The notes: generated by a model from the sequence alone, not told the origin. Numbered from the stretch's first letter, positions 20,250 to 54,636 are shown. The stretch is 64,000 nucleotides of DNA from Candidatus Saccharicenans sp. (GCA_049719515.1 JBNARJ010000011.1:816-64815), one strand, 5' to 3'. Translations and numbers: made by a program.

Positions 20250-20265
20250 TTTTCCCCTCCTTTCC

Positions 20266-20586: not shown

Positions 20587-20601
20587 TTTGCCCTCCTTTC
20601 C

Positions 20602-21858: not shown

Positions 21859-21872
21859 TTTACGCCTCCTTT

Positions 21873-22550: not shown

Positions 22551-22551
22551 C

Positions 22552-37596: not shown

Positions 37597-37866
37597 TTTC
37601 TGCTTACATTTTACCTTAATTTTCGTTTTTTAATCAAACTTTATCCTGCCTTCCTTTAATTTTTGAGCCATCTGCCTCTGTGCGGTTTTCAAAAAATAAA
37701 TCCCTTGTTTGCCATAGTTCTGCTTTATCTGACGAAATAAAAATATTTTTATTCCCAAAAAATTAATTTGAAAAAACATTAAAAAACTTTAAAATTCGCT
37801 TGCATATTGGTATATATTGGTATAAAATGGACTACGAAAATATATAAATTTCTAACGAGGTATATT

Positions 37867-38856
37867 ATGGATATAAAATTAAGCATCGAAAAGAATAGCC
37901 CGGTTCCAGCCTACAGGCAGATCATCAGGCAGATAACCTCGATGATCCGCGATGGGTCAATTAAGCCTGGAGATAAGCTGCCCACTGAAAGGGAGCTTGC
38001 CCAGCAATTACAGATAGCCAGGGGGACGGTTAAAAAGGCTTATGAACTGATGGTTAAAGAAGGCCTGATTGAGACCACTCAGGGCCGGGGAACTTTTGTT
38101 TCGGCGAGGCAGGATATTATTCCCAGCGGCCGCAAGGAAAAAGCCATGAAAATGATAGACGGTCTGATTGATGAATTGCGAAGGCTAAATTTTTCTTACC
38201 AGGAAATAAGAACTTTTGTGGAAGTGGCTTTAATCCAGCGGGAAGAAAAATTGGAGAATTTCAATGTGGCTATCATAGATTGCAACCCGGAAAGTTTGGC
38301 TATTTTTGAAAGACAGCTCACTTTTCTCAAGCACGTCCGGGTTTCCAGATTTCTTCTGGACGAAGTTGTGGCCGACCCGCAGGCTGAACGAAGGCTTGAA
38401 CCTTTTGACTTAATCCTGACCACCAGCACCCACTACAGCGAACTATTGGGTAAAATCGCCAGGCTTAAGGACAGATTGATTCAGGTAGCTGTGTCCCCCA
38501 GCCAGGAAACCATAATCGAGATGGCTAGCTTGAGCCCCATTCAGAGGCTGGGTGTGGTTTGCGAGAGCCAGAATTTCCTGGCCAGAGTGGTAGATAGAAT
38601 AAAAGAGATGGGCCTGGCCACCGGTCAGATTCCTTATTTGTTTTTTAAGGACGAAGAAAACCTGCCCGAGTTTTTGGAAAAGGTTGATGTGGTTTTTGTT
38701 CCGCCAGGTTATCAGCTCCAGAGAAAGAAAGAAAACCTGGCCGCCGTTCAAAATTTTACTCAAAGAGGGGGTAAGGTCATCGTTTTTGACTACCAGATCG
38801 AAAGAGGTTCATTACTTTATGTGGAAGAAAGAATCAGCCAGCTTTTGAACCCTTGA
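37867..38856 (+). CDS. GntR-family transcriptional regulator with large C-terminal effector domain
   Basis: An N-terminal winged HTH (PGDKLPTERELAQQLQIARGTVKKAYELMVKEGLI). Start moved to MDIKLS (37867; GAGG RBS) rather than the track start 37807. Confidence 0.7.
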   Translation: MDIKLSIEKNSPVPAYRQIIRQITSMIRDGSIKPGDKLPTERELAQQLQIARGTVKKAYELMVKEGLIETTQGRGTFVSARQDIIPSGRKEKAMKMIDGLIDELRRLNFSYQEIRTFVEVALIQREEKLENFNVAIIDCNPESLAIFERQLTFLKHVRVSRFLLDEVVADPQAERRLEPFDLILTTSTHYSELLGKIARLKDRLIQVAVSPSQETIIEMASLSPIQRLGVVCESQNFLARVVDRIKEMGLATGQIPYLFFKDEENLPEFLEKVDVVFVPPGYQLQRKKENLAAVQNFTQRGGKVIVFDYQIERGSLLYVEERISQLLNP

Positions 38857-38910
38857 ATTTAAGCCAGTTTCACGCGGTCTTCAGTCATTTAAGTAACTAA
38901 GGAAAGGTTT

Positions 38911-39429
38911 ATGAGCAGTAAAGCAGGAGAAGTAAAAATGGAAAAAGACACTATCATCCTTGGAGTGATAGGAGCCGATTGCCATTCGGTGGGCAATAAA
39001 ATTCTGGAATTGTTTTTTAGCTCTGAGGGTTTTAGGGTGGTTAACCTGGGAGTAATGGTTTCTCAACAGGAGTTTATCAACGCGGCCATTGAGACCAATG
39101 CCAAAGCCATCCTGGTTTCCTCTCTGTATGGTCATGGGGAAATTGATTGCCAGGGGTTCCGCGAGTTGTGTCTGGAGAAAGGGCTGGACCCGATAATCCT
39201 TTATGTGGGCGGAAACCTGGTGGTGGGGAAAACGCCTTTTTCGGTGGTGGAAGAAAAATTTAAGAAGATGGGCTTTGACCGTGTCTTCCCGCCTGATGTG
39301 GACCTGAAGAAGGTGGCTGAACTGCTCAGGCAGGATATCAGGGAAAAATTCGGTCAGTTGGCTTCCGACAATAAAAGCCAGCTTCTCACTGAAGAAAAAA
39401 CCGATGGCGGTCAGCCGAACAGGCCTTGA
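38911..39429 (+). CDS. glmS: Glutamate mutase sigma (S) subunit, B12-binding (alternative start at 38938 MEKDTI...)
   Basis: GVIGADCHSVGNKIL carries the DxHxxG cobalamin-binding motif and matches GlmS/MamA N-termini. About 160 aa. Confidence 0.85.
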   Translation: MSSKAGEVKMEKDTIILGVIGADCHSVGNKILELFFSSEGFRVVNLGVMVSQQEFINAAIETNAKAILVSSLYGHGEIDCQGFRELCLEKGLDPIILYVGGNLVVGKTPFSVVEEKFKKMGFDRVFPPDVDLKKVAELLRQDIREKFGQLASDNKSQLLTEEKTDGGQPNRP

Positions 39430-40835
39430 ACATGAAGACCATAATCAGTATTGACATAGGTTCTACCTGGACAAAGGGCGGAATTTTTGTCCTGGAAAAT
39501 TCGGCACTCAAACTGAAGAAAAAAGTGGTGTTGCCCACCACGCAATCCAACCTTGTCCTGGGTTTTTCCGAAGTGCTGTCCGCTCTCCTGGAAAAGGAAA
39601 AATCCACGCCTTTAGAGATGTTATCCGGCTCGGCCGAATTATTTTTTTCTTCTTCAGCTAAGGGCGGGTTGAGAATCTCAGCCATCGGTCTTGTTCCGGA
39701 CCTGACTCTCCAGTTGGCCAGATTGGCCGCCATGTCGGCCGGGGGCAAGGTCATTCAGAGTTTTTCTTTTGCCCTGACCAGGAGCGACGTAAAAGAGCTG
39801 GAAAAGCAGCGGCCGGATATCATCCTGTTCAGCGGGGGAACCGATGGCGGAAACAGCAAGTACATCCTGGAAAATGCTCTGAAGCTTAAAGCCTCAGAGA
39901 TTTCCTGTCCCATAGTGTACGCCGGCAACCGGGCGGTGGCTGACGAGGTGGCGGATATTCTCCGCGAAAAAGAAGTCATCATCACGGAAAACCTGATGCC
40001 AGAAATAGGTCAGGTTAATATCGAACCCGTGCGGGAAAAAATACGTGAAATTTTCCTCAAGCGAATTGTCAGCGGACGCGGGCTAACGCAAATCGTAGAA
40101 AATTTTGGTACCCAGCCCAAACCAACGCCGCTGGCCGTCTATGAATTGATTTCGGCCATTCCCGCCCACCATCCTGAATGGTCAGATCTGGCTGCTATTG
40201 ATATTGGCGGGGCGACCACTGATTTTTATTCCAACACTGAATCTTATCTGGAAACCGACTCGGTCATTCTCAAGGGAGTTCGTGAACCGAGAGTTAAAAG
40301 AACGGTTGAAGGCGACCTGGGCCTGAGAGTTTCAGCCCATTCACTTTATGACACGGCGCGGGATTATTTAGAAGGTCGGCTGAAAGAACTTGGGCTTAAG
40401 ATGGAAAAGCTGGAAGAATACGTTGACAGGATTGCCAGGACGACTGAATACCTGCCCAGGACCGAGGAAGAAATTCTTTTTGACCGTTTGCTGGCTGAAG
40501 CCTGTGTGTATTTTTCTGCTCTAAGACACATCGGTGGCTGGAAAGAAACTTTTACTCCGCAGGGGAAGGTCTATGTGCAGACCGGAAAAGACCTCAGGCG
40601 AGTTAAAGCCATTATTGGCAGCGGCGGTTATCTTTCACAGGAAAGGTCAGCTGAAGTAATGCAACGGCCGCTGGAAAAACTTAAATTTTACGGGGATGAA
40701 AGAAAACTCACGCCGGAAAAACCTGAATTCTACCGTGACCGAGATTATCTTTTTCCTCTGCTTGGCAACCTGGTTGAGAAATATCCAAAAGAAGCGGCTT
40801 CCGCCGCCTTGGCTTCTTTAGAAAAATTATCATGA
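39426..40835 (+). CDS. glmL: Glutamate mutase accessory protein GlmL/MutL
   Basis: 469 aa, lying between the S and E subunit genes as in clostridial glm operons. An N-terminal IDIGSTWTKG actin/ASKHA-like motif. ATGA overlap with glmS. Confidence 0.7.
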   Translation: MNMKTIISIDIGSTWTKGGIFVLENSALKLKKKVVLPTTQSNLVLGFSEVLSALLEKEKSTPLEMLSGSAELFFSSSAKGGLRISAIGLVPDLTLQLARLAAMSAGGKVIQSFSFALTRSDVKELEKQRPDIILFSGGTDGGNSKYILENALKLKASEISCPIVYAGNRAVADEVADILREKEVIITENLMPEIGQVNIEPVREKIREIFLKRIVSGRGLTQIVENFGTQPKPTPLAVYELISAIPAHHPEWSDLAAIDIGGATTDFYSNTESYLETDSVILKGVREPRVKRTVEGDLGLRVSAHSLYDTARDYLEGRLKELGLKMEKLEEYVDRIARTTEYLPRTEEEILFDRLLAEACVYFSALRHIGGWKETFTPQGKVYVQTGKDLRRVKAIIGSGGYLSQERSAEVMQRPLEKLKFYGDERKLTPEKPEFYRDRDYLFPLLGNLVEKYPKEAASAALASLEKLS

Positions 40836-40847
40836 GAGGTTAGGAAG

Positions 40848-42296
40848 ATGATTAAGAACCAAAAAATAGACCTTAAAGAATTCCTGGAAATCAGAAAAGA
40901 AGTTTTGCAAACCTGGCCTACCGGCCAGAATGTTTCAATTGAAGAAGGAATAAGATACCACCGGACGATTCCGGAAGAAAAGAATTTCTCGTTAGCCATG
41001 CTCCGGGCGAAAAAGAGTCGAAAAACCCTTCTTCAGCCAAGAGCCGGTGTGGCACTGATTGATGACCACATCAAGCTGCTGCGCTACTTAGAAACAGAAG
41101 GACAGGCTGACCTTCTGCCGACGACTATTGACGCCTATACCAGACAAAACAGGTATGAAGAGGCAGAAAAAGGTATTGAAAAATCAAAGCAAGCCGGCAC
41201 CTCCATGCTCAACGGGTTCCCGGCGGTCAATTATGGTGTCGAAGGCTGCCGGAGGGTGGTGGAAAGCGTCATCCGTCCAGTTCAGGTCAGGCACGGCACG
41301 CCGGATGCCCGGCTGCTGGCCGAGATAACCCTGGCGGCCGGTTTTACCAGCTTTGAAGGTGGCGGCATCTCTTACAACATTCCTTATGCCAAGCGAGTTC
41401 CGGTGGAGAAATCTCTTAGAGACTGGCAGTATGTCGACCGTTTGGTCGGTATATATGAAGAAAACGGAGTAAGAATAAACCGAGAGCCATTCGGACCTCT
41501 TACCGGCACTTTGGTGCCGCCGTGCATTTCTATCGCGGTGGGAATCATAGAGGGGCTGTTGGCAATTAAACAGGGGGTAAAGTCAATTACCTTGGGATAC
41601 GGGCAGGGCGGCAACATCATTCAGGATGTGGCCGCCATTGCTGCCCTTCGAGAGCTGGCTGAAGAATATTTTCGCCAGGAAGGCTATGATGACATTGAAC
41701 TAACCACTGTCTTTCACCAGTGGATGGGCGGTTTCCCGGAGGATGAAGCCAAAGCCTTTTCGGTAATTGCCCTGGGAGCCATCGTGGCCAAACTTTCGGG
41801 CGCAGAAAAAGTTATCGTCAAGTCGCCGCATGAAGCCATGGGTATTCCGACCAAAGAAGCCAATGCCCAGGGGCTGCGAGCCACCCGCCAGGCTATCAGC
41901 ATGGTAGAAGACCAGGTGATTTTTAAGCCCGAAGACCTTAAAACCGAAGTCGACTTAATAAAGGAAGAGGTCCGTTGTCTGATGAATAAAGTTTACGAAC
42001 TCGGCCATGGTGATGTGGCCGCAGGCACAGTGGCTGCTTTTGAAGCGGGTGTGCTGGACATTCCTTTTGCGCCTTCCATCTACAACCACGGGAAAATAAT
42101 CCCGATGCGTGATAACGAAGGCTTTATCAGGATTTTCAGCAAAGGGAATTTGCCGCTCAGCGAGGAAATCATGGCTTACCATCGGCAGAGGCTGCAGGAA
42201 AGAGCCAGAGCGGAAGGGCGGGCTATCAGCTTTGAGATGGTCACTGACGATATTTATGCCATCAGCAAAGGAAAATTAGTTGGGAGGCCCAGATGA
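40848..42296 (+). CDS. glmE: Glutamate mutase epsilon (E) subunit (methylaspartate mutase)
   Basis: 482 aa. The size and TIM-barrel-like pattern match GlmE. Its position follows glmL. Confidence 0.8.
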
Positions 42297-43546
42297 AAAT
42301 AAAAAGAGTTCTGTTTGTTCCTGGGAAATCGGCTTTCTTTTTTGATGACCAGAAAGCCATTAAAAAAGGAGCCAGGCCGAACGGTTTTGTCTACGAGGGC
42401 AAAGCCGTGACCAAAGGGTTTGAAAGGATCAGAATAGCCGGTGAAAGCATTTCCGTCATCCTGGAGCTGGAAGACGGACAATTGGCCGTGGGTGATTGCG
42501 CCGCTGTGCAGTATTCCGGGGTTGGTGGCCGTGACCCGCTTTTTCTGGCCGAACACTACCTGCCCTTCATGGAAAGGCACCTCAAACCACTGCTTGAGGG
42601 GCTGGAAGTAACTTCCTTCCGTCAGCTGGCTGACCGCTTTGAAAACATGAAATTTGAGGGAAAGAGGCTTCATACGGCCATCAGATACGGTTTATCGCAG
42701 GCTCTGCTGGACGCCCGGGCTAAAGCCGAAAAAAAGCTTAAGACGGAAGTCATCTGCGAAGAATATAACCTGCCGATTATCCCCGAGCGGATAAAAATTT
42801 TCGGGCAGTCCGGGGATGACCGTTACACCAATGCGGATAAGATGATCCTCAAACAGGTCGATGCTCTGCCTCACGCGCTGATCAACAACGTTGAGGACAA
42901 GCTGGGTCGCCAGGGAGAAAAATTGAGAGAATACATTCGCTGGCTGGTTGCCCGGATAATCAAGCTGAGAACCAGAGAAGATTATCGGCCTGATATTCAT
43001 ATTGATGTCTATGGAACAATAGGCCTCATATTTGATGGAGACACGGAACGGGTGGCGGATTATCTGGCTTCCCTGGAAAAAGAAGCGGACGGGTTTAATC
43101 TCTACATAGAAGGCCCGGTCGATATGGAAGAAAAATACCGGCAGATGGAAGCCCTGGCCAGGATTACCAGGAAGCTGGAATCGATGGGGTCGAGGGTAAA
43201 AGTGGTGGCTGACGAACACTGCAATACTCTGGAAGATATCAAGGAATTTACCGATGCCCGGGCCTGCCACATGATTCAGATAAAAACGCCCGACCTGGGT
43301 GGCATTCAGAATGTGGCGGAAGCCAATCTCTACTGTAAAGCTCATGGAATAGAAGCCTATCAGGGCGGTACCTGCAATGAAACTGACATTTCAGCCCAGG
43401 CCTGCGTGCACGTGGCCATGGCCACCAGACCGGACCGCATGCTGGCCAAACCGGGGATGGGCTTTGACGAAGGTTTCATGATTGTGAATAATGAAATGGA
43501 ACGAATCATCCGGGTGCTGAAGATGAAATACGCGGAGAATAAATAA
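42293..43546 (+). CDS. mal: 3-Methylaspartate ammonia-lyase (beta-methylaspartase, enolase superfamily)
   Basis: 417 aa. An N-terminal [20 protein letters not shown]...-type beginning and enolase-superfamily layout. ATGA overlap with glmE. Confidence 0.8.
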
Positions 43547-44929
43547 ATGAAAAAAGCCAGTCAGAAAAAAATAAAACTTCCACCCTTTAAAATTCTTTCG
43601 ACCACGGCCATCCTGGGCTACGGCTTCCCGGAGAGCTCTTTTCGCCGCGGCCTGAGCCGGAAGCCAGATTTAATCGCGGCGGATGCTGGCTCGACCGACC
43701 CGGGACCGTATTATCTCGGAGCCGGGAAATCCTTTACCAACCGCACCGCGGTTAAAAGAGATTTGCGGCTGATGATAAAGGCCGGGGTAGAAAAAAATAT
43801 CCCGGTTATCATCGGTACGGCGGGCGGTTCAGGGGCCAGGCCACACCTGGAATGGTGTTTGGAAATTGTGCGAGAAATTGCCAGAGAAGAAAAGCTTCAT
43901 TTCAAACTGGGTATTGCCCATGCCGATGTGGATAAAAAGACCGTAAAAGAGGCTCTCAAGAAAGGGAACATCAAACCGCTGCCCTTCGTGCCCGAGCTCA
44001 CGCCAGAAGTTGTTGACCAGAGTGAAAACATCGTGGCCCAAATGGGGGTGGAGCCGTTCATCAAGTTGCTGGAACAGGGTTGCCAGGTCATTGTGGCCGG
44101 TCGGTCTTATGACCCGGCTGTTTTTGCCGCTCTGCCCATTGCCCGCGGTTATGACTCCGGGCTGGCACTTCACCTGGGAAAGATTCTGGAATGCGCGGCC
44201 ATCGCCGCCACTCCAGGTTCCGGTTCTGATTGCGCTCTGGGGATTCTGGAAGAAGATTCTTTTGTCTTGGAAGCCCTTTCCCCGGAAAGAAAATTCACCC
44301 CACAATCAGCGGCCGCTCATACCCTTTATGAGAAATCAGACCCTTACGAGCTTCCTGGCCCGGGTGGCGTCATAAACTTAAGAGAATGCAGCTTTGAGGA
44401 TATAGGCCATGGCCGGGTTCGGGTCAGGGGGAGCAGGTTCATTCCGACTGAACAGTACTGGGTTAAACTCGAAGGGGTCAGGCTCATCGGCCACAGGTCA
44501 ATCAGCGTGGCTGGAGTTCGTGACCCAATCATGATTTCAAAGATTGATGAAATTTTGAAAGCGGTGGAAGCCAGGTCCAGAGAAATAATGGGGCAGGAAG
44601 CCGAGCAGGGCCGGATATTTTTCCACGTTTACGGAAAAAACGGGGTGATGGGGCAGCTGGAGCCGGTTAAGAAGATTCAGTCGCATGAACTTGGCCTGGT
44701 GATTGAGGCCATCGCCCCCACCCAGGAAGCGGCCGATGCTTTGCTGGCTGTGACCCGTTCGGCTCTTTTACATTACGGATATGAAGGACGGATAGCTACG
44801 GCCGGCAACCTGGCCTTTCCTTTTTCGCCTTCCGATGTGGCCATGGGCAAAGTATTTGAGTTTTCAATCTATCACCTCATGAAGCTTGAAGACCCGGCCC
44901 TGTTTAAAACTGAAGTGGAAAAAATTTAG
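43547..44929 (+). CDS. DUF1446 (AtuA-like) family protein, tentative
   Basis: 460 aa. Assigned by recall of the AtuA-like N-terminal region. It is followed by a small ORF that resembles the DUF4387 partner. Not verified by search. Confidence 0.4.
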   Translation: MKKASQKKIKLPPFKILSTTAILGYGFPESSFRRGLSRKPDLIAADAGSTDPGPYYLGAGKSFTNRTAVKRDLRLMIKAGVEKNIPVIIGTAGGSGARPHLEWCLEIVREIAREEKLHFKLGIAHADVDKKTVKEALKKGNIKPLPFVPELTPEVVDQSENIVAQMGVEPFIKLLEQGCQVIVAGRSYDPAVFAALPIARGYDSGLALHLGKILECAAIAATPGSGSDCALGILEEDSFVLEALSPERKFTPQSAAAHTLYEKSDPYELPGPGGVINLRECSFEDIGHGRVRVRGSRFIPTEQYWVKLEGVRLIGHRSISVAGVRDPIMISKIDEILKAVEARSREIMGQEAEQGRIFFHVYGKNGVMGQLEPVKKIQSHELGLVIEAIAPTQEAADALLAVTRSALLHYGYEGRIATAGNLAFPFSPSDVAMGKVFEFSIYHLMKLEDPALFKTEVEKI

Positions 44930-44939
44930 GGGGACATAG

Positions 44940-45287
44940 ATGGCCCAAACAAAAAGAAAAATCAGTAAAGTTAGTAAAAAAAGAAGTATCCTGGAAGTGG
45001 CCAGGGTTATCCGTTCAAAAAACTCTGGACCTTTTGAGCTGACTCTTGATATCATGTTCAAGGACAAGAAATATTTTGATTACTTCCGTAAGAAAAAGGT
45101 CATTACGGCCAAAAAGATAGCCAGGCTCTACGGGATTCCGGAAACCGAGGTGCTTAAGATTGTTTACTTTGAACCGAGCCAGGCCATCAAAGTGACCATA
45201 AAAAGGAAAATACCATCGGGCTCACCCGGCGACACGGATATTTACGGAGCTCAGCAGCATGCGCCTTTGCTGGACCTGACCTTTTAA
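44940..45287 (+). CDS. DUF4387-like small protein (partner of DUF1446), tentative
   Basis: 115 aa. GPFELTLDIMFKD ... YGAQQHAPL pattern as recalled for DUF4387. Combined length with the preceding ORF is about that of fused AtuA proteins. Confidence 0.4.
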   Translation: MAQTKRKISKVSKKRSILEVARVIRSKNSGPFELTLDIMFKDKKYFDYFRKKKVITAKKIARLYGIPETEVLKIVYFEPSQAIKVTIKRKIPSGSPGDTDIYGAQQHAPLLDLTF

Positions 45288-45312
45288 GCCCCGGCGGGCT
45301 TGAGGATAGATA

Positions 45313-46263
45313 ATGGACCCAAAGCAGCTGTCCAGAATTGACACGCTGATTTATGCCGTTTATTACGCGCCCCGCGGACGCTACCGTCTGTATATGGTGG
45401 CCAGTGAAATCGCGCGGCGGTATCTTACGCCCACCGATTATCTGATAGGTATCATAGGGGAAGAAGGAGCCGGCAAATCAACCCTGATTCGTGGCCTTTT
45501 CCCCGGGCTGGAGTTGACCAATGAGGATGAGGGAGTAAACGTCCGGCGGGCACCAATATATTCTTTTTCGCCGGATGATTATTTTTCTGGCCACACTTTT
45601 CACATTGATGTCAGGCACGAGCTGGCCTTTACGCAAAAGTACAAGATTAGGGAAGCAATCAGACGCGCCATAGAGCACAAGCGTCGGGTGGTGGTAGAAC
45701 ATTTTGACCTGATTTATGATGTGCTGGGCTGCAATGCCCAGGTGTTGATTGGCATCGGGGAAGAAATCATCGTGGCCCGGCCGACCGTGTTTGGCCCTTT
45801 TCCCGAGAACATAAAAACAATTGTGGATAGAACCATCAAGTACCGCCTGATGGCGCATTCGGCCGAGGATATAACCACCTATATCCTGGAAAGAGATTAT
45901 CAATACCGTTCTTCGTCGCCTCTGATTCACTCCGATATCAGGCATGGCTTTGTCATAAATTTCAGCGAAAGGCCGGATATCGACCTGGATGAACTCGAAG
46001 AAAAAGTGAAGAAAATCATTGCCGCAGACTTGCCGATAGTCAGCGTGCCCGGTGAAGACGCCATTAAAGTAGGAGACATCAAAATTTACTGCACGGGGCC
46101 GAGGACGCATGTGGACCGCACCGGACAGATAGAGAATTTTCGGCTGCTGAAAGAGTTCAGGCTGAATCCGCTGACCAATGAATTCATGCTCATCGGCATG
46201 GTCGGCCAGAAAACCATCGCCGGTTTTGAGGATATCATCGAGTACATGGACATCGAAGACTGA
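45313..46263 (+). CDS. Hypothetical P-loop NTPase / kinase-like protein
   Basis: Walker A-like IGIIGEEGAGKSTLI. No G-protein G4 (NKxD) motif, so not a MeaB-type chaperone. Confidence 0.4.
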   Translation: MDPKQLSRIDTLIYAVYYAPRGRYRLYMVASEIARRYLTPTDYLIGIIGEEGAGKSTLIRGLFPGLELTNEDEGVNVRRAPIYSFSPDDYFSGHTFHIDVRHELAFTQKYKIREAIRRAIEHKRRVVVEHFDLIYDVLGCNAQVLIGIGEEIIVARPTVFGPFPENIKTIVDRTIKYRLMAHSAEDITTYILERDYQYRSSSPLIHSDIRHGFVINFSERPDIDLDELEEKVKKIIAADLPIVSVPGEDAIKVGDIKIYCTGPRTHVDRTGQIENFRLLKEFRLNPLTNEFMLIGMVGQKTIAGFEDIIEYMDIED

Positions 46264-46289
46264 ATCTTAATTTAGGGGGAGAAGAAACC

Positions 46290-47888
46290 ATGAGATTTAA
46301 ATACGTCCCGCTTTTGCCCAGAGAAAAGCAAAAAATCAGTTACGAAAAATTGACTGACCAGTTTGTAAAAGAAATAAAATGGCGCGGCCGGACCTTCCTC
46401 GAAGTAAAACCCGAGGGGCTGCGGCTTCTGGCCAGAGAAGCTTTGGCCCGGGTAAACTTCTATTTTAGAACTTCTCACCTTGAAAACCTGGCCTCGATTA
46501 TAGACGACCCGGAGGCCTCAGAAAACGATAAGTACGTGGCGGCCATGCTAATAAAAAATGCCATAATTTCGGCTGAAGGGCAGCTGCCGCTCTGCCAGGA
46601 TACGGGTACGGCCAACATCATCGGTTACAAGGGAGAAAATGTGCTGACCGGAGTTGATGATGTTAAATACCTGAGCTGGGGAGTTTTTGACGCCTATACC
46701 GGTCTGAACCTCAGAGCCTCCCAGAATGCACCGCTTTCCATGCTGGAGGAAAAAAATACCGGAAACAACCTGCCGGCTCAGGTGGAGATTTTCAGCACGA
46801 AAGGCAATGAATATCACTTTTACATCATGGCCAAGGGCGGGGGCTCTTCCAACAAGACGGCTCTTTACCAGGAGAACAAATCTCTGTTAAAAGACGATAA
46901 AACGCTGTATGAATTTTTGAAGGACAGGATAAAAGCCATCGGGGTGGCTGCCTGCCCGCCTTACCGGATTGCCGTGGTGGTTGGCGGTCTCTCGCCGGAA
47001 ATGAACCTCAAGACGGTGAAGCTGGCTTCGGCCGGTTTTCTTGACGGCCTGGTCACCAGGCCAACCGGTGAACCGCACGGGTACCGTGATTTGGAGTGGG
47101 AAAAGAAAGTGATGAAAATTGCCAGAGAAACAGGTCTGGGCGCGCAGTTTGGTGGAGTGGCCCTGGCGGTAGAAGCAAGAGTGATCAGGCTTCCCAGGCA
47201 TGGAGGGTCTCTGCCGGTGGGTATTGGGGTAAGCTGCAACGCTGATAGAAACATAAGGGCAAAAATAAACCGGTATGGTCTTTTCCTCGAAAAGCTCGAC
47301 CGGAACCCAAAGCGCTTCCTGGAAAAGGTGGAAAGCTTGAAGCTGGAAAAGGTGCCGGAGGTCGATTTGGACCAGGGCCTGGAGGGGCTGGTGGAGGAGC
47401 TTTCTAAATATCCGGTCGGCAGCCGGGTGAGCCTCACCGGGACGCTGATCGTGGCGCGGGATATGGCTCATCTGAGGTTGAAGAAAATGCTTGATGAGGG
47501 CAGGCCGCTGCCTGAGTACTTTAAAAAATATGCTGTTTATTATGCCGGGCCGGCCAGGGCACCAAAGGGCCTGCCCACCGGAAGTTTTGGGCCGACTTCA
47601 GCTCAGAGAATGGATAATTACGTTGAAGAATTCATGAAGGCCGGGGCTTCAAGAGTAATGCTGGCCAAGGGCAATCGGTCGGAGAAAGTGGTTGAGGCCT
47701 GCCGAAGGTATCGTGGCTTTTACCTGGGCACCATTGGAGGAGCAGCCGCCCTGGTGGCCAAGGAGCACATAATTTCCAGTGAGCTTCTTGATTTTGCCGA
47801 TTTGGGTATGGAAGCCATCAGGAAAATTGTGGTGAAAAACCTGCCGGCTTTTATCATTATTGATGATAAAGGGAATAAGCTGTATTAG
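46290..47888 (+). CDS. Class I (Fe-S) fumarate hydratase family, fused alpha-beta form; candidate mesaconase
   Basis: CQDTGTA motif of the Fe-S hydro-lyase alpha domain and a C-terminal beta-domain in one 532 aa polypeptide. It closes the methylaspartate operon. Confidence 0.75.
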   Translation: MRFKYVPLLPREKQKISYEKLTDQFVKEIKWRGRTFLEVKPEGLRLLAREALARVNFYFRTSHLENLASIIDDPEASENDKYVAAMLIKNAIISAEGQLPLCQDTGTANIIGYKGENVLTGVDDVKYLSWGVFDAYTGLNLRASQNAPLSMLEEKNTGNNLPAQVEIFSTKGNEYHFYIMAKGGGSSNKTALYQENKSLLKDDKTLYEFLKDRIKAIGVAACPPYRIAVVVGGLSPEMNLKTVKLASAGFLDGLVTRPTGEPHGYRDLEWEKKVMKIARETGLGAQFGGVALAVEARVIRLPRHGGSLPVGIGVSCNADRNIRAKINRYGLFLEKLDRNPKRFLEKVESLKLEKVPEVDLDQGLEGLVEELSKYPVGSRVSLTGTLIVARDMAHLRLKKMLDEGRPLPEYFKKYAVYYAGPARAPKGLPTGSFGPTSAQRMDNYVEEFMKAGASRVMLAKGNRSEKVVEACRRYRGFYLGTIGGAAALVAKEHIISSELLDFADLGMEAIRKIVVKNLPAFIIIDDKGNKLY

Positions 47889-48338: not shown

Positions 48339-48364
48339 TAATGTTGATAGTGAGGAGATTAAAT

Positions 48365-50413
48365 ATGCGCAAACCGCCAGTTTACCTGCTTTTGTTAATT
48401 TCCCTGACTTTTGTGACCATCGTGGCTGCGGCGGCCGGGGAAAAACACTATATTTTGTCCGGAGGAGAAAGAGATTTCTATTTCGCTCATATAAGTTATC
48501 TGCCGGCTGACCTTGGGAGCAAAAACCCGGAGGTCTTGAGAAGCGGGATAGCAGGAGCCGAGGAAGTACAGCTTAATCTTCCTCTTGTCCCGGGCGATGT
48601 TCTCGTCACCTACGACCGTCCGTGTGAAGTTCAATTTGACTCGGGAACGATAGTTAGGCTGGATGTTGATTCCAGGTTGAAAATAGAAACCGTCCTGGCT
48701 CAGACCTTAAGTTCTGAGGAAAAACTTTCCAGTCTTTTTCTGGAAAAGGGGCGGCTGTATTTGATGTATACAGCCTACAATTCATGGGAAATTTTTCAGC
48801 TGGTAACACCCGCGGCCGCCCTGAAGATGAAAAATCATACCGTTCTGGTGGTGGCCCAGGATGAACCGGGTCCGACTAAGATAGCCGTTCTTCAGGGGAG
48901 TGCCAAGGTTCTTTTTGGCCCGGACGAGAAAAACCTCAGGACCCAGGCTTTAAAAAAAGGCCAGAACTTGATTATCAGCGGAGCTTCTCAAACAGAAAAA
49001 GTTTCTGTCATCAGCGAGTTCGGTGAGTTTGTGGCCTGGAATGAAAAGATAAACAGGGAATTTGTGGAGCTCCATAAAGGCCTGACTCCACTCCCCAAAC
49101 CAGTTCAAAAATTGCCCTCAGCTGTTTTTTACTTTGCTCAGTATTATGGCAACAAATACGGAGAGTGGCTGTGGGATGACCTCTATGGTTATGTCTGGCG
49201 GCCTTTTTACAATGATATCTATCCCTGGGGCAACTGGTCCCCTTATTTTTATGGTCGCTGGTCTTATGTAAACGGAGAGCTTTTCTGGGTGCCGGAGGAG
49301 CCGTGGGGCTGGGTGCCTTATCATTTGGGAATCTGGCAGTGGGACAAGAAGCTCGGCTGGGTTTGGATACCGGGTTCGGTTTTTGCCCCGGCTTGGGTTG
49401 ACTGGTGTTTTTATTACGGTTACTTCAGCTGGCGGCCCTGGACGCTGAGTGATTTCCTGTTTTATGCCTATTACGGTCTGGGAACCGGTGATTATTACTG
49501 GAACAATTACTGGACAGGCTGGTCGACCGGTTCCTATTTTGCCGGAAACCAGATGAATAATTTCCTCAAAAAGGTCAGCAAGGACCAGCTCAAGAAGAGA
49601 AGCAGTGTGATTCCTTCAGAATTCAGGCAAGTATTGAATACCATGGCGCAGGCCGTAGAAAAGAATGACAGGACAGTGCTGGAAAGAATAGAGGGTAAAT
49701 CCCCGGCGGTGATAATTAGAAGGGAAGATATAGCCAGGACAGACCTCAGGTCGAGGATGATTACCTCTCCGGATAAAATTCAGGAACAGTTGAAAAATCA
49801 ACCTTCCGCTCCTTCAGCGGTTAAAGAAATTGCCGGTACAGGGTCTGCCAAAAACCCGGCCGAGGAGTTTTTAAAATGGCGGCAGGCCCAAGCCGTTTCT
49901 GAGAATAATGCCGGGGAAGCTGTTCGCCGAGTGGTAGCAGTGATGGACCGGAAACAGGTCCAGAGTCAGAGAAGCGCTGCTAATTTTCCTTCTCCAAGGA
50001 ATAATCCGGCAGAATATCTTAATGCCCCGGAAGCCAGGCGGGCCGAAAATGCCCGCAAGGCCGGCGGACCCGTTTTTAATCAGAGGCTCAGGTTCCGCGA
50101 CTGGAACCCTGATGTCCGGGTGGCCAGAGAAGCGGGTTTCAGCCTGGTGTATGATAGCTCTCGGAATGCCATTGTGGTTCCTGAACTGGGGGTAAGTTCG
50201 CGGGAAGCAAAAGAATGGAGGGTGAGGCTGACGCCCTCGGGTCTAATTCAGCATGTGCCTTCAGGTTGGGCGGATAACAGCAGCAGTTATATTTCATCTG
50301 ATTCTTCCTCCCCAGTGCCAACGGTTTCTCCCAAGACGATGTCTTCCGGCAGCTCAAATTCTGGACACAGCAGCGGTGGCAATTCCTCCAATGCCGGACG
50401 AGAAAAACACTGA
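48365..50413 (+). CDS. Secreted protein: FecR-like domain plus Trp/Tyr/Gly-rich repeat region plus Ser-rich C-terminal tail
   Basis: A signal peptide after MRKPP (start moved from 48341 to the second Met, which has an SD). A central region with more than 20 Trp (WGWVPYHLGIWQWDKKLGWVWIPG...). A Ser/Gly-rich tail. Confidence 0.5.
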   Translation: MRKPPVYLLLLISLTFVTIVAAAAGEKHYILSGGERDFYFAHISYLPADLGSKNPEVLRSGIAGAEEVQLNLPLVPGDVLVTYDRPCEVQFDSGTIVRLDVDSRLKIETVLAQTLSSEEKLSSLFLEKGRLYLMYTAYNSWEIFQLVTPAAALKMKNHTVLVVAQDEPGPTKIAVLQGSAKVLFGPDEKNLRTQALKKGQNLIISGASQTEKVSVISEFGEFVAWNEKINREFVELHKGLTPLPKPVQKLPSAVFYFAQYYGNKYGEWLWDDLYGYVWRPFYNDIYPWGNWSPYFYGRWSYVNGELFWVPEEPWGWVPYHLGIWQWDKKLGWVWIPGSVFAPAWVDWCFYYGYFSWRPWTLSDFLFYAYYGLGTGDYYWNNYWTGWSTGSYFAGNQMNNFLKKVSKDQLKKRSSVIPSEFRQVLNTMAQAVEKNDRTVLERIEGKSPAVIIRREDIARTDLRSRMITSPDKIQEQLKNQPSAPSAVKEIAGTGSAKNPAEEFLKWRQAQAVSENNAGEAVRRVVAVMDRKQVQSQRSAANFPSPRNNPAEYLNAPEARRAENARKAGGPVFNQRLRFRDWNPDVRVAREAGFSLVYDSSRNAIVVPELGVSSREAKEWRVRLTPSGLIQHVPSGWADNSSSYISSDSSSPVPTVSPKTMSSGSSNSGHSSGGNSSNAGREKH

Positions 50414-50491: not shown

Positions 50492-51373
50492 ATGCGTTCT
50501 GGTTTTGTGGCTGTGGTTGGTAAACCCAATTCCGGAAAATCAACTCTACTCAACGCTCTGACCGGGCAGAAGGTCAGCATTGTCTCTGAGAAGCCTCAGA
50601 CCACCAGGTTTAAAATAAGAGGGGTGGTCAACCGTCCGGAAGGACAGATTGTTTTTGTTGATACGCCAGGTTTTCACAAACCAAAAGATGCCCTGGGCGA
50701 ATACCTGAATTCTCAGGTTACAGGTACCTTGAGAGAAGTTGACCTGATACTTTTTCTGGCTGATAGCTCGCGAGAGCTCACGGAGGAGGACCGCCTGCTG
50801 ATGGAGGAAATAAAAAAAGCGCAGGCACCCTGCTTCCTGGTGGTCACCAAAAAAGACCTGGCCACGCCCGAAACGGTGTCTAAAACAGAACAGGAAGTGG
50901 CCCGGCTTTTACCCTGCAAAGAATCGGTGGTCATTTCCGCGGTTACCGGAGAAGGTCTGGACCTTCTTTTAGAAAAGATTTTCTCCTATTTGCCAGAAGG
51001 GCCTGCTCTTTATCCGGAGGATATGGTAACGGATTATCCGCTTAGCCTTCAGGCGGCGGAGATAATCAGAGAAAAGGTGCTTATGAACCTTCATCAGGAA
51101 GTGCCACATTCAGTGGCGGTGCAGGTCATCAAAATTGAGGAAAAACCAGAAAAGAACCTCTTGGCCATTCAGGCCGAGATATACGTTGAGAAAGATTCTC
51201 AGAAAAAAATTGTCATCGGCCGGGAAGGTTCAATGATTAAAAAAATCGGCACTCTCGCCAGAGAAGAACTTGAGCATATCACGGGGAAAAAAATATTCCT
51301 TGAACTTTATGTCAAAGTAAAAGAGAAGTGGAGGGATAAAGAATCATTTGTAAAAAAGCTTTATCTTTCTTAG
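50492..51373 (+). CDS. era: GTPase Era (with C-terminal KH domain)
   Basis: GKPNSGKSTLLNAL (G1), DTPG (G3), TKKD (G4) and a C-terminal KH region. AAGGAGGG RBS. Confidence 0.9.
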   Translation: MRSGFVAVVGKPNSGKSTLLNALTGQKVSIVSEKPQTTRFKIRGVVNRPEGQIVFVDTPGFHKPKDALGEYLNSQVTGTLREVDLILFLADSSRELTEEDRLLMEEIKKAQAPCFLVVTKKDLATPETVSKTEQEVARLLPCKESVVISAVTGEGLDLLLEKIFSYLPEGPALYPEDMVTDYPLSLQAAEIIREKVLMNLHQEVPHSVAVQVIKIEEKPEKNLLAIQAEIYVEKDSQKKIVIGREGSMIKKIGTLAREELEHITGKKIFLELYVKVKEKWRDKESFVKKLYLS

Positions 51374-51572: not shown

Positions 51573-53948
51573 TTAATATGCCAGTTTTTTGTTTCGCGTT
51601 GGGCGGTAACTCCAGCCTTCTCCGTCCCAGAATCTTATTTTTTCTTTAAGAATTCTGAGTTCAGTAAGAGCCTGAGGGGGCAAAATCCCCTGAACCATGA
51701 ACTCTTTGATTTTCTCTATGGTCATGTCAGTCGGGCGGGAAAAAAGCGGTTGAAGATGGTAATCAAAATTATATATAATTTCATAAGGATTTTCCTTTGA
51801 AAATTCAGTCACGGACGCCTCTATCTTTTTATCTGTTCTGAGCAATTCAAGCTGACGGGTGTAATTTCTTAAGGCCATAACCTGGTTTAAGGTGGTTCGA
51901 GGGAACAGGATATAATATTCCTGTGTTCCGGGCGGGAGGCCTTGAAACTGGAATTCCGGGTTGCCGCTGGAGGGGGAGCATCCTTCGACCTTTCGGGGGT
52001 CAAGCACCAGCAGGCAGGCGCACTGGAAATCATTGTTGGTTCCGCCGAGGATAATTTCATTCCAGCCATCTTCGTCAATATCCTCGACCAGGCAGGCATC
52101 TCGGTTGAGATGACCGGCCTGCCAGTATTCTCCAATTATCCGTCCTGATGAGTTTAGAAGGGTGATTTGAACCGGATACCAGGTCGCATGGTTGGCCACC
52201 ACCAGGATGAATTTTTCCTCTGAGTTATTTTTGAGCTTCCAGATGCCCAGGTTCCGCACAATGTAGTTGTTGGAGAATTCGTCATTCAGTGTTTTAATCC
52301 TTTTACCCGGCTCAAATGACCAGCGCAGCTGACCATTTGGCTCAAAAAGTAATATTTCGGAAGTTCGCTTCTCCTGCTCTTTATAGTTTACGCCCACCAG
52401 TATTTCTTTTTTTCCGTCTCCTTCAAGGTCCATCAATTTCTGGGTCAGGCTTTCTGTTTCGGCTGAGCTTTTAAGCTGGTAGGCCCAGAGGACTTCTTTT
52501 TTTTCACCTATGGCCAGGAGTTTGTCATGATGCAGCTCCATGGCCACCACCGGCCTGGATGTCTTGAATGGAAAATAATTAGACCGGCTGCCAAACATGA
52601 ATAAAAAGAACAGACCGGTCAAAAACAGGACTGAAAAAAATGTTTTGGCCACGAGCTTTCTTTTAGTCTTTATAAGCCAGATTATTTTGGAAGTGGAGTT
52701 TCTCTGGATTAAACGCTCATCTTCGATAATGTCCATCAGACTTTTTGCCCCGATGAGCTCCAGCCGGCGGTGGGTGTGCCCGGTCAGAAACTGATAAAGA
52801 ATGAGACTGGCTTCCTTCATGTTTTCTTCAGGTATAACTAAGTAACGAATCCCTGAGTAAAAAGCTGCTTTAATCTTCATCTCCAGGCTTTCTGGTTCGA
52901 TGCGCAAAACCTGGCCATTCAGGTCGACCCGACCGGTAAAAGCTGCCTGCCGGCTTATCGATAAAGAGTGTGGTGCTTTGAAAGTCCTGAGCTTTTGAGC
53001 GAGGGCCAGCAGGGTGACCGGCAGCCCGAGGCTCTGCCCGGGATAAATGAACTTTTTATCAGGAAAAGAAAAAATTATAAAAAATGGGGGAAGTTCCAGC
53101 CTGAAGGCCCTGTGAAGGACATAATCGGCGGCTTCGAGACCGTCAGCTAAGGAGGCAGAAAGTGCTTCCTCCAAAGAAGACATCAAATTAGAAAACTTAA
53201 AGATGTTTTGACCGTCGGCCACCGCCATTTTTCGGCCATGAGCTGAAAGGGAAATGATTCTGGCTTTTTCCGGAGGGGAAAAAGTTTCTCTTTTTTCGAT
53301 CAGTGAACAGTAGAGGCTGTCTGAGGAAAAACCGCGGTACTTCTCCCATTTTTCAAAGATAAAATCTTTATCAGCCAGGATTTCTTCAGGCAATCCGGCT
53401 GAATTAAAAAATTCAACACACATTTCCAGGTTGGATAGCCGGGTGTTTTTGATCCTGAGAATCTGCTCGTAAGATAACGGACAAACAGCCGTCAGCAGGT
53501 CCTTAGCTTCTGGCACCGGGCCGCCTTTTAGCAGCCTGTTTTTAAAAACAAGGGCCTGACAGGCGCGGTCGAGTTCTCCCAAATAAAAATATTGAAGAGC
53601 CAGATAAAAGAGCAGGTTGGTCAGCCCCTCTCGGATGAGATTTTGGTCGAGCTTATCGGGGAATTTTCGGTAGAAATTGACTGCAGACTCAAAAATCGTC
53701 AGCAATTCATCTGGTGGAACAGATTCTGGCTGCATGCTGGCCAGCAGATAGAAAAACACGCCAGCGTACTGAAGATAAAATGAATAGACCAGGTCTTCGT
53801 TTAATCCTCTGGTTTCGTTTATGAACTGACAGATGACACGGACGCGGGAGGCGTCATCGGCCGCCAGAGTTATTTCGGATATGCTTCTGCGAAATAATTC
53901 CTCCAGTTGCAGGGGAGAAAGCTCGGGCGAGGAAGATGTGTTATCCAT
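51573..53948 (-). CDS. Large membrane protein: N-terminal unknown domain, Lon-like (S16) Ser-Lys protease domain, single TM helix, C-terminal periplasmic FG-GAP/beta-propeller-like domain
   Basis: PGQSLGLPVTLLAL...AAFTGRVDLNGQVLRIEPESLEMKIKAAFYSGIRYLVIPEEN aligns with Lon GPSAG...[28 protein letters not shown].EN, with the catalytic Ser and Lys conserved. The TM helix is FFSVLFLTGLFFLFMFG. The C-terminal region has DIDEDGWNEIILGG, which is FG-GAP-like. Confidence 0.55.
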   Translation of the reverse strand: MDNTSSSPELSPLQLEELFRRSISEITLAADDASRVRVICQFINETRGLNEDLVYSFYLQYAGVFFYLLASMQPESVPPDELLTIFESAVNFYRKFPDKLDQNLIREGLTNLLFYLALQYFYLGELDRACQALVFKNRLLKGGPVPEAKDLLTAVCPLSYEQILRIKNTRLSNLEMCVEFFNSAGLPEEILADKDFIFEKWEKYRGFSSDSLYCSLIEKRETFSPPEKARIISLSAHGRKMAVADGQNIFKFSNLMSSLEEALSASLADGLEAADYVLHRAFRLELPPFFIIFSFPDKKFIYPGQSLGLPVTLLALAQKLRTFKAPHSLSISRQAAFTGRVDLNGQVLRIEPESLEMKIKAAFYSGIRYLVIPEENMKEASLILYQFLTGHTHRRLELIGAKSLMDIIEDERLIQRNSTSKIIWLIKTKRKLVAKTFFSVLFLTGLFFLFMFGSRSNYFPFKTSRPVVAMELHHDKLLAIGEKKEVLWAYQLKSSAETESLTQKLMDLEGDGKKEILVGVNYKEQEKRTSEILLFEPNGQLRWSFEPGKRIKTLNDEFSNNYIVRNLGIWKLKNNSEEKFILVVANHATWYPVQITLLNSSGRIIGEYWQAGHLNRDACLVEDIDEDGWNEIILGGTNNDFQCACLLVLDPRKVEGCSPSSGNPEFQFQGLPPGTQEYYILFPRTTLNQVMALRNYTRQLELLRTDKKIEASVTEFSKENPYEIIYNFDYHLQPLFSRPTDMTIEKIKEFMVQGILPPQALTELRILKEKIRFWDGEGWSYRPTRNKKLAY

Positions 53949-54636
53949 AGATGTTAATTTGAACCTTCTCAGAATTTATGAACCTGGCCGGAACCTCAAA
54001 AAGGGCCATATTTTTAAAGGACGTGGCTATCAGGGGTTCTTCCCCCTCTTTAACCAAAACCATTTTTTTCAGTTTCAGTGCGGAGTTTGGGTTCAGGAAC
54101 TTGACCTTGATGGTCAGGTCTCGTTCCTGGCTGAATATTTCAACTTCGAGGGCTGATTCTTTAAAGCTTTCTATGCACCAGGCCTGTTTGAGAAAGGCAG
54201 TTTGCTTTGTTTCGGGCGGAGAGAATTCAAAAATGGCTGCCGGGGGCATGAGCTTTATTGACGGATTAGATAATTCCAGGTCCTCAAGCGAAACCAGCCC
54301 GTGAGAATCGGTCAGGTAGCACCGGGCTTGGTCCCTGGGGCAGATAAACACATACTGGTAACCGGATTTTTCTCGATGCAACAGGTGAGCCTGCAGCTGA
54401 TGATGGATCGGATCATTTATGATTCTTAAAAGATACTGTCCGTCAGATGAAGCCAGCGAGATCTTTTCTGAGTAATAATCGGCCGCAGATAAATGACTGA
54501 ATCCTATCAGGTTGGGAAAAGGAGGAGTTTCAGACCTGACTTTATGCAGGCAAACATTGAACAGAGGCGGTCCCTCAGTTTTATTTTCTCCACAACAAGA
54601 AATTATTTTTTCAATTAATTCTTTCCTGGTTTTCAT
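53941..54636 (-). CDS. Hypothetical protein (middle gene of three-gene operon)
   Basis: 231 aa. Translationally coupled to neighbours (8 nt and 4 nt overlaps). No motif recognised. Confidence 0.45.
   Translation of the reverse strand: MKTRKELIEKIISCCGENKTEGPPLFNVCLHKVRSETPPFPNLIGFSHLSAADYYSEKISLASSDGQYLLRIINDPIHHQLQAHLLHREKSGYQYVFICPRDQARCYLTDSHGLVSLEDLELSNPSIKLMPPAAIFEFSPPETKQTAFLKQAWCIESFKESALEVEIFSQERDLTIKVKFLNPNSALKLKKMVLVKEGEEPLIATSFKNMALFEVPARFINSEKVQINIYG

Follow-up and report, generated by a model that had tools for sequence, protein, structure and literature searches.

The window analysed here, a stretch of 64,000 nucleotides from Candidatus Saccharicenans (Aminicenantes), contains nine closely packed plus-strand genes at 37867-47888 (Table 1), with a 452-nt gap 3' of the last one, the fumarase gene. 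A sequence-only reading of this DNA had listed a GntR regulator, glmS-glmL-glmE-mal, a DUF1446/DUF4387 pair, a Walker A protein and a fused fumarase. We found all nine ORFs where that reading had placed them, and the NCBIfam and Pfam assignments agreed with its gene identities.

Table 1. Genes and gene junctions of the methylaspartate-pathway region (positions counted from the first nucleotide of the window).
Feature	Position	Strand	Evidence or spacing
GntR-family transcriptional regulator, 329 aa	37867..38856	+	Pfam GntR 3.4e-19
GntR-glmS junction			gap 54 nt
glmS, B12-binding small subunit, glutamate (methylaspartate) mutase	38911..39429	+	NF002612 equivalog 215.8 bits (cutoff 110); Pfam B12-binding
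glmS/glmL junction			4-nt overlap
glmL (mutL), glutamate mutase accessory/reactivating protein	39426..40835	+	NF040745 488.4 bits (cutoff 475); Pfam MutL 2.5e-135
glmL-glmE junction			gap 12 nt
glmE, glutamate mutase catalytic subunit	40848..42296	+	TIGR01503 782.7 bits (cutoff 390)
glmE/mal junction			4-nt overlap
mal, 3-methylaspartate ammonia-lyase	42293..43546	+	TIGR01502 564.2 bits (cutoff 286); Pfam MAAL_N + MAAL_C
mal-cmlA junction			gap 0 nt
cmlA, large subunit, predicted AtuA/DUF1446-type citramalate lyase	43547..44929	+	Pfam AtuA/DUF1446 67.1 bits (cutoff 22.8)
cmlA-cmlB junction			gap 10 nt
cmlB, small DUF4387 subunit, predicted citramalate lyase	44940..45287	+	Pfam DUF4387 135.6 bits (cutoff 27), 1e-39
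cmlB-Walker A gene junction			gap 25 nt
Conserved ATPase (Walker A protein), 316 aa	45313..46263	+	Walker A GEEGAGKST; TsaE-like P-loop and AlaX/tRNA_SAD-like domains
Walker A gene-fumarase junction			gap 26 nt
Fused class I [4Fe-4S] fumarate hydratase, FumD-like	46290..47888	+	Pfam Fumerase + Fumerase_C, one chain

The first gene probably encodes the regulator of the operon. In 53 of 54 related loci glmS was preceded by the gene of a GntR homologue that had YmtS_Ross as its C-terminal domain (precomputed Pfam), and among related loci with sufficient upstream DNA GntR, GlmE and Mal were found in 53 of 54 and CmlA in 51 of 54. A longer GntR ORF starting from a TTG at 37807 fitted worse than the ATG at 37867, homologues being 329-330 aa long. 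A promoter-like site was present at 37768-37795, of a kind that was not enriched relative to shuffled sequence.

GlmS, GlmL, GlmE and Mal all exceeded the cutoffs of their own curated equivalog models, and the ATG at 39432 may be the real start of glmL. The activities given here for the window proteins are predicted ones. The B12 enzyme GlmS/GlmE would turn glutamate into (2S,3S)-3-methylaspartate, with GlmL serving as its reactivating chaperone, and Mal would then deaminate methylaspartate to mesaconate. Hydration of mesaconate to (S)-citramalate would fall to the fused class I Fe-S fumarase, which the sequence-only reading had put forward as a mesaconase candidate. This proposal gained ground, as the whole protein shared 50% identity with FumD, the fumarase encoded in the methylaspartate cluster of E. 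coli, and the cysteines in three conserved motifs aligned. It fell under the cutoffs of the NCBIfam FumA/B equivalog models (615 versus about 1100). The E. coli FumD was shown experimentally to prefer mesaconate (PMC4682846). From the 50% identity to FumD we infer the same preference for the window fumarase, which is probably a mesaconase.

The pair that follows mal had been described as AtuA-like (460 aa plus 115 aa, DUF1446 plus DUF4387), and both proteins indeed scored above the cutoffs of these Pfam families. Residues 13-459 of the 460 in the large subunit matched chain A of PDB entries 9ERQ/9EVF, labelled 'Citramalate lyase, subunit A (cmlA)' (phmmer, E 4.1e-183), and its AF2 model (pLDDT 84) aligned with 9EVF_A at a TM score of 0.90 and 60% identity (Foldseek). 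Likewise, the small subunit matched chain B of 9ERQ, 'Citramalate lyase, subunit B (cmlB)', with an E value of 3.3e-27. Entry 9EVF, released on 2025-10-08, is a 'Citramalate lyase - ADP - pyruvate complex', and its ADP leaves room for a nucleotide-linked role of the Walker A protein with CmlAB. CmlAB of Raoultella planticola, used in a 2026 preprint, enables growth on mesaconate, with citramalate giving pyruvate and acetate (bioRxiv 10.64898/2026.01.16.699985), a cleavage known only for the enterobacterial enzyme. A literature search found no primary paper on CmlAB, and the name of the function comes from the labels of the PDB depositors and one preprint using the enzyme. Both the solved and the window enzyme consist of two subunits, an AtuA-family protein (~456 aa) and a DUF4387 protein (~105 aa), and both are encoded after mal; about 40% of residues differ in the window enzyme, for which the citramalate lyase role is predicted. 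On these matches the DUF1446/DUF4387 pair is the operon's predicted citramalate lyase, which would split citramalate into pyruvate and acetate and is not homologous to CitDEF. Since a CmlAB-type lyase is already solved and named in 9ERQ/9EVF, the pair is no open unknown. If it is the citramalate lyase, the pathway is therefore complete in the operon. Besides, in a Pirellulales locus a two-subunit CoA ligase and an HpcH/CitE-type lyase occupy the cmlAB slot, a replacement that fits a citramalate-cleaving role for this position.

It is hardly credible that the pair here, instead of acting as the lyase, serves another catabolic route in the manner of AtuA or has some other role. Its public annotation is 'acyclic terpene utilization AtuA family protein', and PF07287 covers residues 70-412 of the large subunit well above its cutoff. 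However, throughout its length the large subunit shares 60-62% identity with the solved CmlA, the cmlB partner adjoins its gene, the place after mal is the same in enterobacteria, and no atu-type genes (geranyl-CoA carboxylase, acyl-CoA dehydrogenase, hydratase) were found among the window ORFs scanned; the pair is surrounded by glm, mal and fum genes. The sequence-only reading had also stated that the operon carries no citramalate lyase. This was correct for the canonical enzyme: a Pfam scan that took in 50 ORFs of the window, among them all those of at least 200 aa, found no CitE (HpcH_HpaI), CitF or CoA-transferase, and no CitDEF-type lyase was present among these 50 ORFs, those scanned outside the operon being of about 170 aa or more and so above the size range of CitD. 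It was not correct for the activity, as the lyase is present in the form of CmlAB according to the 9ERQ/9EVF matches. By the same matches the pair fills the citramalate-consuming slot, as had been proposed, and two further suggestions for it, an alternative fate of mesaconate or citramalate and maintenance of the B12 enzyme, gave way to its identity with CmlA/CmlB.

In Enterobacteriaceae, a cluster of this type, in which a DUF1446 gene lies 3' of mal and the mesaconase is FumD, has been in the literature since 2015 (Kronen & Berg 2015, PMC4682846). The order in E. coli is glmS-glmL-glmE-mal-AtuA-DUF4387-(gltP)-fumD. The window shares this core order, its AtuA, DUF4387 and fumarase proteins being 60%, 50% and 50% identical to their E. 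coli orthologues, and CitDEF is absent from both. On the other hand, only the window, whose host belongs to an anaerobic Aminicenantes MAG lineage, has a leading GntR gene and, separating cmlB from the fumarase, a TsaE/AlaX-like ATPase, whereas gltP, cobO and the LysR regulator of the enterobacterial cluster are absent from its operon. The clostridial methylaspartate cluster has the pathway chemistry and the glm and mal genes in common with the window (PMC4682846), but there the lyase is an ACP-dependent CitDEF enzyme with CitCXG genes for its activation, and the mesaconase (MesAB) has two subunits; none of these was found in the window ORFs scanned. The core order and the CmlAB-type lyase were already known, and the Walker A ATPase is a conserved extra component of the cassette. 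The region is very probably a single GntR-controlled operon for glutamate catabolism through the complete methylaspartate pathway, citramalate lyase (CmlAB) included, and it would yield pyruvate, acetate and ammonia from glutamate.

The 316-aa Walker A ATPase is the sole gene of the operon left without a known function. The motif was present as reported in the sequence-only reading, and the protein stayed below the cutoffs of all Pfam and NCBIfam families. It consists of a TsaE-like P-loop domain (~residues 10-160) and an AlaX/tRNA_SAD-like domain (~residues 165-310). The AF2 model (pLDDT 82) matched TsaE/YjeE (1htw, 1.5e-5) and AlaX-M (9iuw, 4e-5; also 2e1b) in Foldseek searches. Invariant residues among 41 sequences included K55/S56/T57, H97, D99, R101, H182, D186, C260 and H266. 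In about ten phyla the gene remains part of the operon, and its product retains ~63% identity between phyla, a level resembling that of the catalytic enzymes, whereas GlmL (46%) and GntR (45%) are less conserved.

We examined the neighbourhoods of this gene with regard to its partners. The fumarase gene lay immediately 3' of it in 61 of 72 loci, and no fumarase was near it in 9 of the 72. Adjacency to cmlAB was as frequent, with these genes immediately 5' in 68 of 75 loci. In Treponema and Gracilinema the Walker A gene and the fumarase form a stand-alone pair, next to which a histidine kinase and a sigma-54 response regulator are encoded divergently, and such spirochaete pairs have no glm genes within 10 kb. 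A mirror-tree analysis singled out no partner. Tentatively, the Walker A protein may be an ATP-driven accessory or maintenance factor of the lower pathway, with the Fe-S mesaconase as its most likely client; much as TsaE works on the metalloenzyme TsaD, it might for instance deliver metal or reset the active site. Slightly less likely is a role as a previously undescribed ninth pathway component. The protein would then bind metal and use ATP to install, repair or reset an active site, either in the Fe-S mesaconase/fumarase or in lower-pathway enzymes generally. If true, a class I fumarase-type hydro-lyase would for the first time be known to have a helper protein of its own. Against an accessory role, enterobacterial FumD and CmlAB both function without the P-loop protein. 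We consider it unlikely that the protein serves CmlAB rather than the fumarase, for instance in nucleotide exchange, activation or regulation. Its frequent place directly 3' of cmlB, the ADP in 9EVF and a weak match of CmlA residues 122-238 to ATP-grasp (D-Ala-D-Ala ligase, E 0.0012) point to such a helper, but the gene persists where a CoA ligase and HpcH lyase replace cmlAB (L004) or cmlAB is absent (L027, L030, L058), stand-alone pairs with the fumarase exist, and in E. coli the Raoultella CmlAB is functional in the absence of the Walker A protein (bioRxiv 10.64898/2026.01.16.699985).

In its fold, its Walker A motif and a stretch of the form H-x-D-x-R the N-terminal domain is like TsaE (YjeE) of t6A tRNA modification. 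The stretch H97/D99/R101 presumably resembles the HxDxYR motif of TsaE. The likeness of the domain to TsaE is at the level of fold only, the score against Pfam TsaE (PF02367) being 19.7 bits, under the gathering cutoff of 26.6. Unlike TsaE, the window protein carries an extra AlaX-like domain of ~150 aa and is encoded in a catabolic operon without TsaB/TsaD context. TsaE acts on an ASKHA-fold heterodimer, TsaD/TsaB, and the protein could by the same token be a partner of the ASKHA-fold GlmL, or a MeaB-like cofactor-loading ATPase, in either case maintaining the radical B12 enzyme. Consistent with this, 53 of 54 loci contain both the gene and glmE, and the E. coli cluster has cobO instead of it. 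However, we regard B12-enzyme maintenance, also suggested for this protein by the sequence-only reading, as highly improbable: the gene is kept in Planctomycete loci without glmL (L004, L039, L057) and pairs with the fumarase in spirochaetes without glm or mal nearby, and no ArgK/MeaB or CobW similarity was found in the protein.

The C-terminal domain resembles AlaX and the AlaRS/ThrRS editing domain in fold. Weak tRNA_SAD matches were found in 21 of 41 family members (best 3.4e-5), and the window protein scored 17.9 bits against PF07973 (cutoff 24). The AlaRS editing domain has two zinc motifs, and the tRNA_SAD profile aligned both in collinear order, HxxxH with H182xxxD186 and CxxxH with C260x5H266, at an E value of about 0.6, which is below significance. 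These features, together with a pathway that yields a non-proteinogenic aspartate analogue, would fit a trans-editing hydrolase that clears 3-methylaspartate, or another intermediate, mischarged on tRNA and so shields translation. Such a function is nevertheless highly unlikely. Asp replaces one zinc histidine (HxxxD for HxxxH), the second motif is altered as well (Cx5H for CxxxH), and the domain, joined to an ATPase, has no tRNA-related context. No trans-editing factor is known to need an ATPase domain. In addition, in Treponema and Gracilinema the gene accompanies the fumarase under the sigma-54 two-component system and not mal/glm, the source of methylaspartate.

All nine open reading frames proposed by the sequence-only reading were found on the plus strand (37867-47888), and the start chosen for the GntR gene (ATG 37867, 329 aa) agreed with the lengths of its homologues (329-330 aa). 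The nine genes are packed as in an operon: 4-nt overlaps join glmS to glmL and glmE to mal, no nucleotide separates mal from the next gene, and the remaining gaps are 10-54 nt, with a gap of 452 nt separating the 3' end of the fumarase gene from a FecR/DUF6600 gene. GlmS, GlmL, GlmE and Mal all passed curated NCBIfam equivalog cutoffs, and Pfam searches bore out the DUF1446 and DUF4387 domains proposed for the two proteins encoded after mal. Neither CitE, CitF nor a CoA-transferase was found with Pfam among 50 window ORFs, and an Rfam scan of the window returned no cobalamin or other riboswitch. Counts in a promoter and terminator scan were not above those of shuffled sequence. GntR is likely the operon regulator.

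Features of the operon, of a hydrogenase gene set in the window, and of homologous loci in other genomes (L-numbers)
Feature	Position	Strand	Source or taxon
AtuA/DUF1446	43547-44929	+	Pfam
DUF4387	44940-45287	+	Pfam
Walker A motif, 316-aa protein	45313-46263	+	Below every family cutoff (Pfam, NCBIfam)
Fumerase + Fumerase_C	46290-47888	+	Pfam
[NiFe] hydrogenase large subunit	18510-20345	-	
CCG/4Fe-4S protein, [NiFe] hydrogenase gene set	20602-21858	-	
[NiFe] hydrogenase small subunit	22552-23706	-	
Citrate_bind and Ligase_CoA subunits + HpcH/CitE-type lyase	L004:6337-9983		Pirellulales, GCA_016936015.1
Stand-alone P-loop-fumarase pair	L069:9884-12642		Treponema/Gracilinema
Stand-alone P-loop-fumarase pair	L087:3665-6367		Treponema/Gracilinema
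Stand-alone P-loop-fumarase pair	L089:10001-12758		Treponema/Gracilinema
Stand-alone P-loop-fumarase pair	L091:10001-12721		Treponema/Gracilinema

Judged by sequence and predicted fold, the DUF1446/DUF4387 pair is a citramalate lyase, an enzyme not homologous to CitDEF. When all PDB sequences were searched, the 460-aa DUF1446 protein (CmlA) matched chain A of 9ERQ/9EVF over residues 13-459 (E 4.1e-183), a chain that the depositors named both 'Acyclic terpene utilization AtuA family protein' and 'Citramalate lyase, subunit A (cmlA)', and the 115-aa DUF4387 protein (CmlB) matched chain B (E 3.3e-27), named 'DUF4387 domain-containing protein' and 'Citramalate lyase, subunit B (cmlB)'. The AF2 model of CmlA (pLDDT 84) had 9EVF_A as its only significant PDB fold match (TM 0.90, 60% identity). 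Since 9EVF, released on 2025-10-08, is entitled 'Citramalate lyase - ADP - pyruvate complex', the solved CmlAB binds nucleotide. Within CmlA, residues 122-238 weakly resemble the ATP-grasp enzyme D-Ala-D-Ala ligase (E 0.0012). Our literature search found no primary paper on CmlAB; growth on mesaconate is reported to be Cml-dependent (bioRxiv 10.64898/2026.01.16.699985). The sequence-only reading had placed an unknown pair in the citramalate-consuming slot after mal and proposed an alternative fate for mesaconate or citramalate; the placement held, but the match to 9ERQ/9EVF points to the ordinary reaction.

Citramalate consumption without CitDEF was a genuine open question in 2015: enterobacterial glm-mal clusters were described that encode FumD, an additional class I fumarase with a preference for mesaconate, and that carry a DUF1446 gene downstream of mal, citramalate lyase activity was not detected, and 'the fate of (S)-citramalate ... 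unclear' was the verdict (Kronen & Berg 2015, PMC4682846). It was sound to raise the same question again from the sequence alone, but the CmlAB structures have in the meantime supplied the answer. The chromosomal order in E. coli is glmS-glmL-glmE-mal-AtuA-DUF4387-gltP-fumarase-cobO-LysR; the window proteins are 60% (CmlA), 50% (CmlB) and 50% (fumarase) identical to their E. coli counterparts, and the cysteines in three conserved motifs of the fumarases align. In contrast to the enterobacterial cluster, the window has in addition a GntR gene and a conserved TsaE/AlaX-like gene, that of the 316-aa P-loop protein. Just upstream of E. coli glmS lie two hypothetical genes of 314 and 140 aa (L001:3705-5152, NZ_AP022261.1), and the 314-aa protein was rejected as a P-loop homologue because it is unrelated.

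Going by gene identity and orthology, the operon very probably encodes a route from glutamate to pyruvate and acetate, in which GlmSE with GlmL would convert glutamate to 3-methylaspartate, Mal would convert this to mesaconate, the fumarase would hydrate mesaconate to (S)-citramalate, and CmlAB would cleave the latter. Neither the pathway nor the cluster layout is new, and CmlAB too has been identified, though only very recently; genome annotation has yet to reflect it. Public records name the CmlA orthologues P0430, P0326 and P0377 '3-methylaspartate ammonia-lyase', 'acyclic terpene utilization AtuA family protein' or 'DUF1446', and none of the public CmlA orthologue names examined mentions a citramalate lyase function. 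The value of this part of the result is a correct annotation where public labels are outdated, and the interest of the region is carried almost wholly by the uncharacterised P-loop ATPase.

A protein annotated to Candidatus Saccharicenans sp. shared 100% identity with window CmlA, and the nearest P-loop loci (86-94% identity) came from Aminicenantes/Saccharicenans MAGs. A scan for the P-loop family, with one genome per species, recovered 80 loci, from Aminicenantes/Acidobacteriota, Spirochaetota, Planctomycetota, Ozemobacteraceae/Rifleibacteriota, Raymondbacteria, Elusimicrobia, Lentisphaerae, Myxococcota, Deltaproteobacteria and Latescibacterota; Kiritimatiellae and Clostridiales-labelled MAGs were seen separately. 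Locus ORFs were searched with the window proteins, and in the 54 loci whose upstream DNA extended to 7.5 kb or more, GntR, GlmE and Mal were each present in 53, GlmS in 52, CmlA in 51, and CmlB and GlmL in 49 each. The nine-gene order was repeated in Kiritimatiellae, Elusimicrobia and one Clostridiales-labelled MAG. The CmlAB-type pathway is thus a nine-gene cassette found across about ten mostly uncultured anaerobic phyla, of which, or of its breadth, we found no description in the literature; its spread bears on amino-acid fermentation in sediments and digesters. One variant came from Pirellulales (L004), where the operon lacks glmL and the position after mal and before the P-loop gene holds, instead of cmlAB, an ATP-grasp/CoA-ligase of two subunits (succinyl- or citryl-CoA synthetase-like) together with an HpcH/CitE-type C-C lyase. 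A CoA ligase with an HpcH/CitE-type lyase constitutes a CoA-dependent route of citramalate cleavage, so these genes look like a non-orthologous replacement of cmlAB in the same position, and the operon looks, from its gene content, like a CoA-dependent variant of the cassette. This replacement lends independent genomic support to citramalate cleavage as the function of the slot.

The cassette holds one strongly conserved gene of uncharacterised function, that of the P-loop ATPase, which is tied to the Fe-S hydro-lyase. Our literature search found no account of the family. A word-indexed search gave 2481 homologues with no Pfam domain recorded; public records call them 'alanine-tRNA synthetase second additional domain-containing protein', 'TsaE' or 'GTPase SAR1', or label them hypothetical. 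An exhaustive comparison of the family profile with 1.84 billion cluster representatives yielded only 312 hits, a handful of full length and the rest fragments, and no distant annotated relatives, so the proteins make up one tight orthologous family; against PDB sequences the profile matched nothing but ABC ATPases, through the generic Walker A. Apparent fusions to CotH, Mob_Pre or SRP pieces (P0212, P0155, P0190) were rejected, as they look like chimeric contigs. Among distant loci that carry the complete operon, the P-loop proteins averaged 63% identity to that of the window, compared with 70% for GlmS, 69% for GlmE, 66% for Mal and CmlA, 61% for CmlB, 55% for fumarase, 46% for GlmL and 45% for GntR; its constraint is thus like that of the catalytic enzymes and unlike that of a chaperone or regulator.

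The AF2 model of the P-loop protein (pLDDT 82) matched TsaE/YjeE (1htw, 1fl9, 6n9a; E 1.5e-5 to 5e-4) and AlaX-M trans-editing enzymes (9iuw, 4e-5; 2e1b). Sub-threshold Pfam tRNA_SAD hits occurred in 21 of 41 family members, and a profile of the C-terminal half aligned collinearly with the archaeal AlaRS editing domain, though not significantly (E about 0.6), with 'MAHSAED' opposite 'RHHSATH' (HxxxH motif) and 'CTGTRTHV' opposite 'CGG--THC' (CxxxH motif). Invariant in the 41 sequences were Walker A K55/S56/T57, the stretch H97-x-D99-x-R101, which we take to resemble the HxDxYR motif of TsaE, and H182, D186, C260 and H266, which could be metal ligands that presumably cluster. Alongside the AlaX-like fold, a role as a trans-editing hydrolase for methylaspartyl-tRNA was considered; it is weakened by Treponema/Gracilinema (several assemblies; L069, L087-L091), in which the P-loop gene stands alone with the gene of a class I fumarase, the pair being transcribed divergently from a histidine kinase and a sigma-54 response regulator, with no glm, mal or cml gene within 10 kb. 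Genomes with such a pair include GCA_030154545.1 and GCA_054684395.1, and the culturable Gracilinema caldarium is among the carriers. These spirochaete pairs likewise weaken a role as a B12 or GlmL partner, and the P-loop gene is also kept where glmL is absent (L004, L039, L057).

We tentatively regard the P-loop protein as an ATP-dependent accessory of the lower pathway, possible rather than probable, with the Fe-S hydro-lyase as its most likely client. TsaE is a partner-activated switch acting on a metalloenzyme, and this property, the stand-alone pairs and a conserved His/Asp/Cys/His site that could carry metal all favour such a role. In 61 of 72 loci the next gene downstream, in the same orientation, encoded a fumarase (fused or split); a split fumarase was nearby on the opposite strand in two, and none was in the locus in nine. 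On the upstream side the immediate neighbour was cmlAB in 68 of 75 loci, with mal in three others and an HpcH lyase in one, and the adjacency of cmlAB, as frequent as that of fumarase, together with the ADP held in 9EVF, speaks for the rival reading of an accessory of CmlAB; the P-loop gene is kept at loci that have a substitute for cmlAB or no cmlAB (L004, L027, L030, L058). Mirror-tree (distance-matrix) correlations were 0.72-0.98 for all operon proteins, and partial correlations singled out no partner among them. Enterobacterial clusters lack the P-loop gene, and their FumD and CmlAB are nevertheless active.

Directly after the operon lie genes for a 690-aa FecR + DUF6600 protein (48341-50413, plus strand) and an Era GTPase (50492-51373). 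The related contigs L002 and L003, also from Aminicenantes, have both neighbours as well, so the insertion site of the operon is stable in this lineage. Three consecutive minus-strand genes (51573-55679; 791, 231 and 348 aa) had no Pfam match, and their homologues occupy the equivalent position in L002 and L003. Elsewhere in the window we noted a [NiFe] hydrogenase gene set (18510-23706, minus strand) and a possible multihaem cytochrome (62361-63734).
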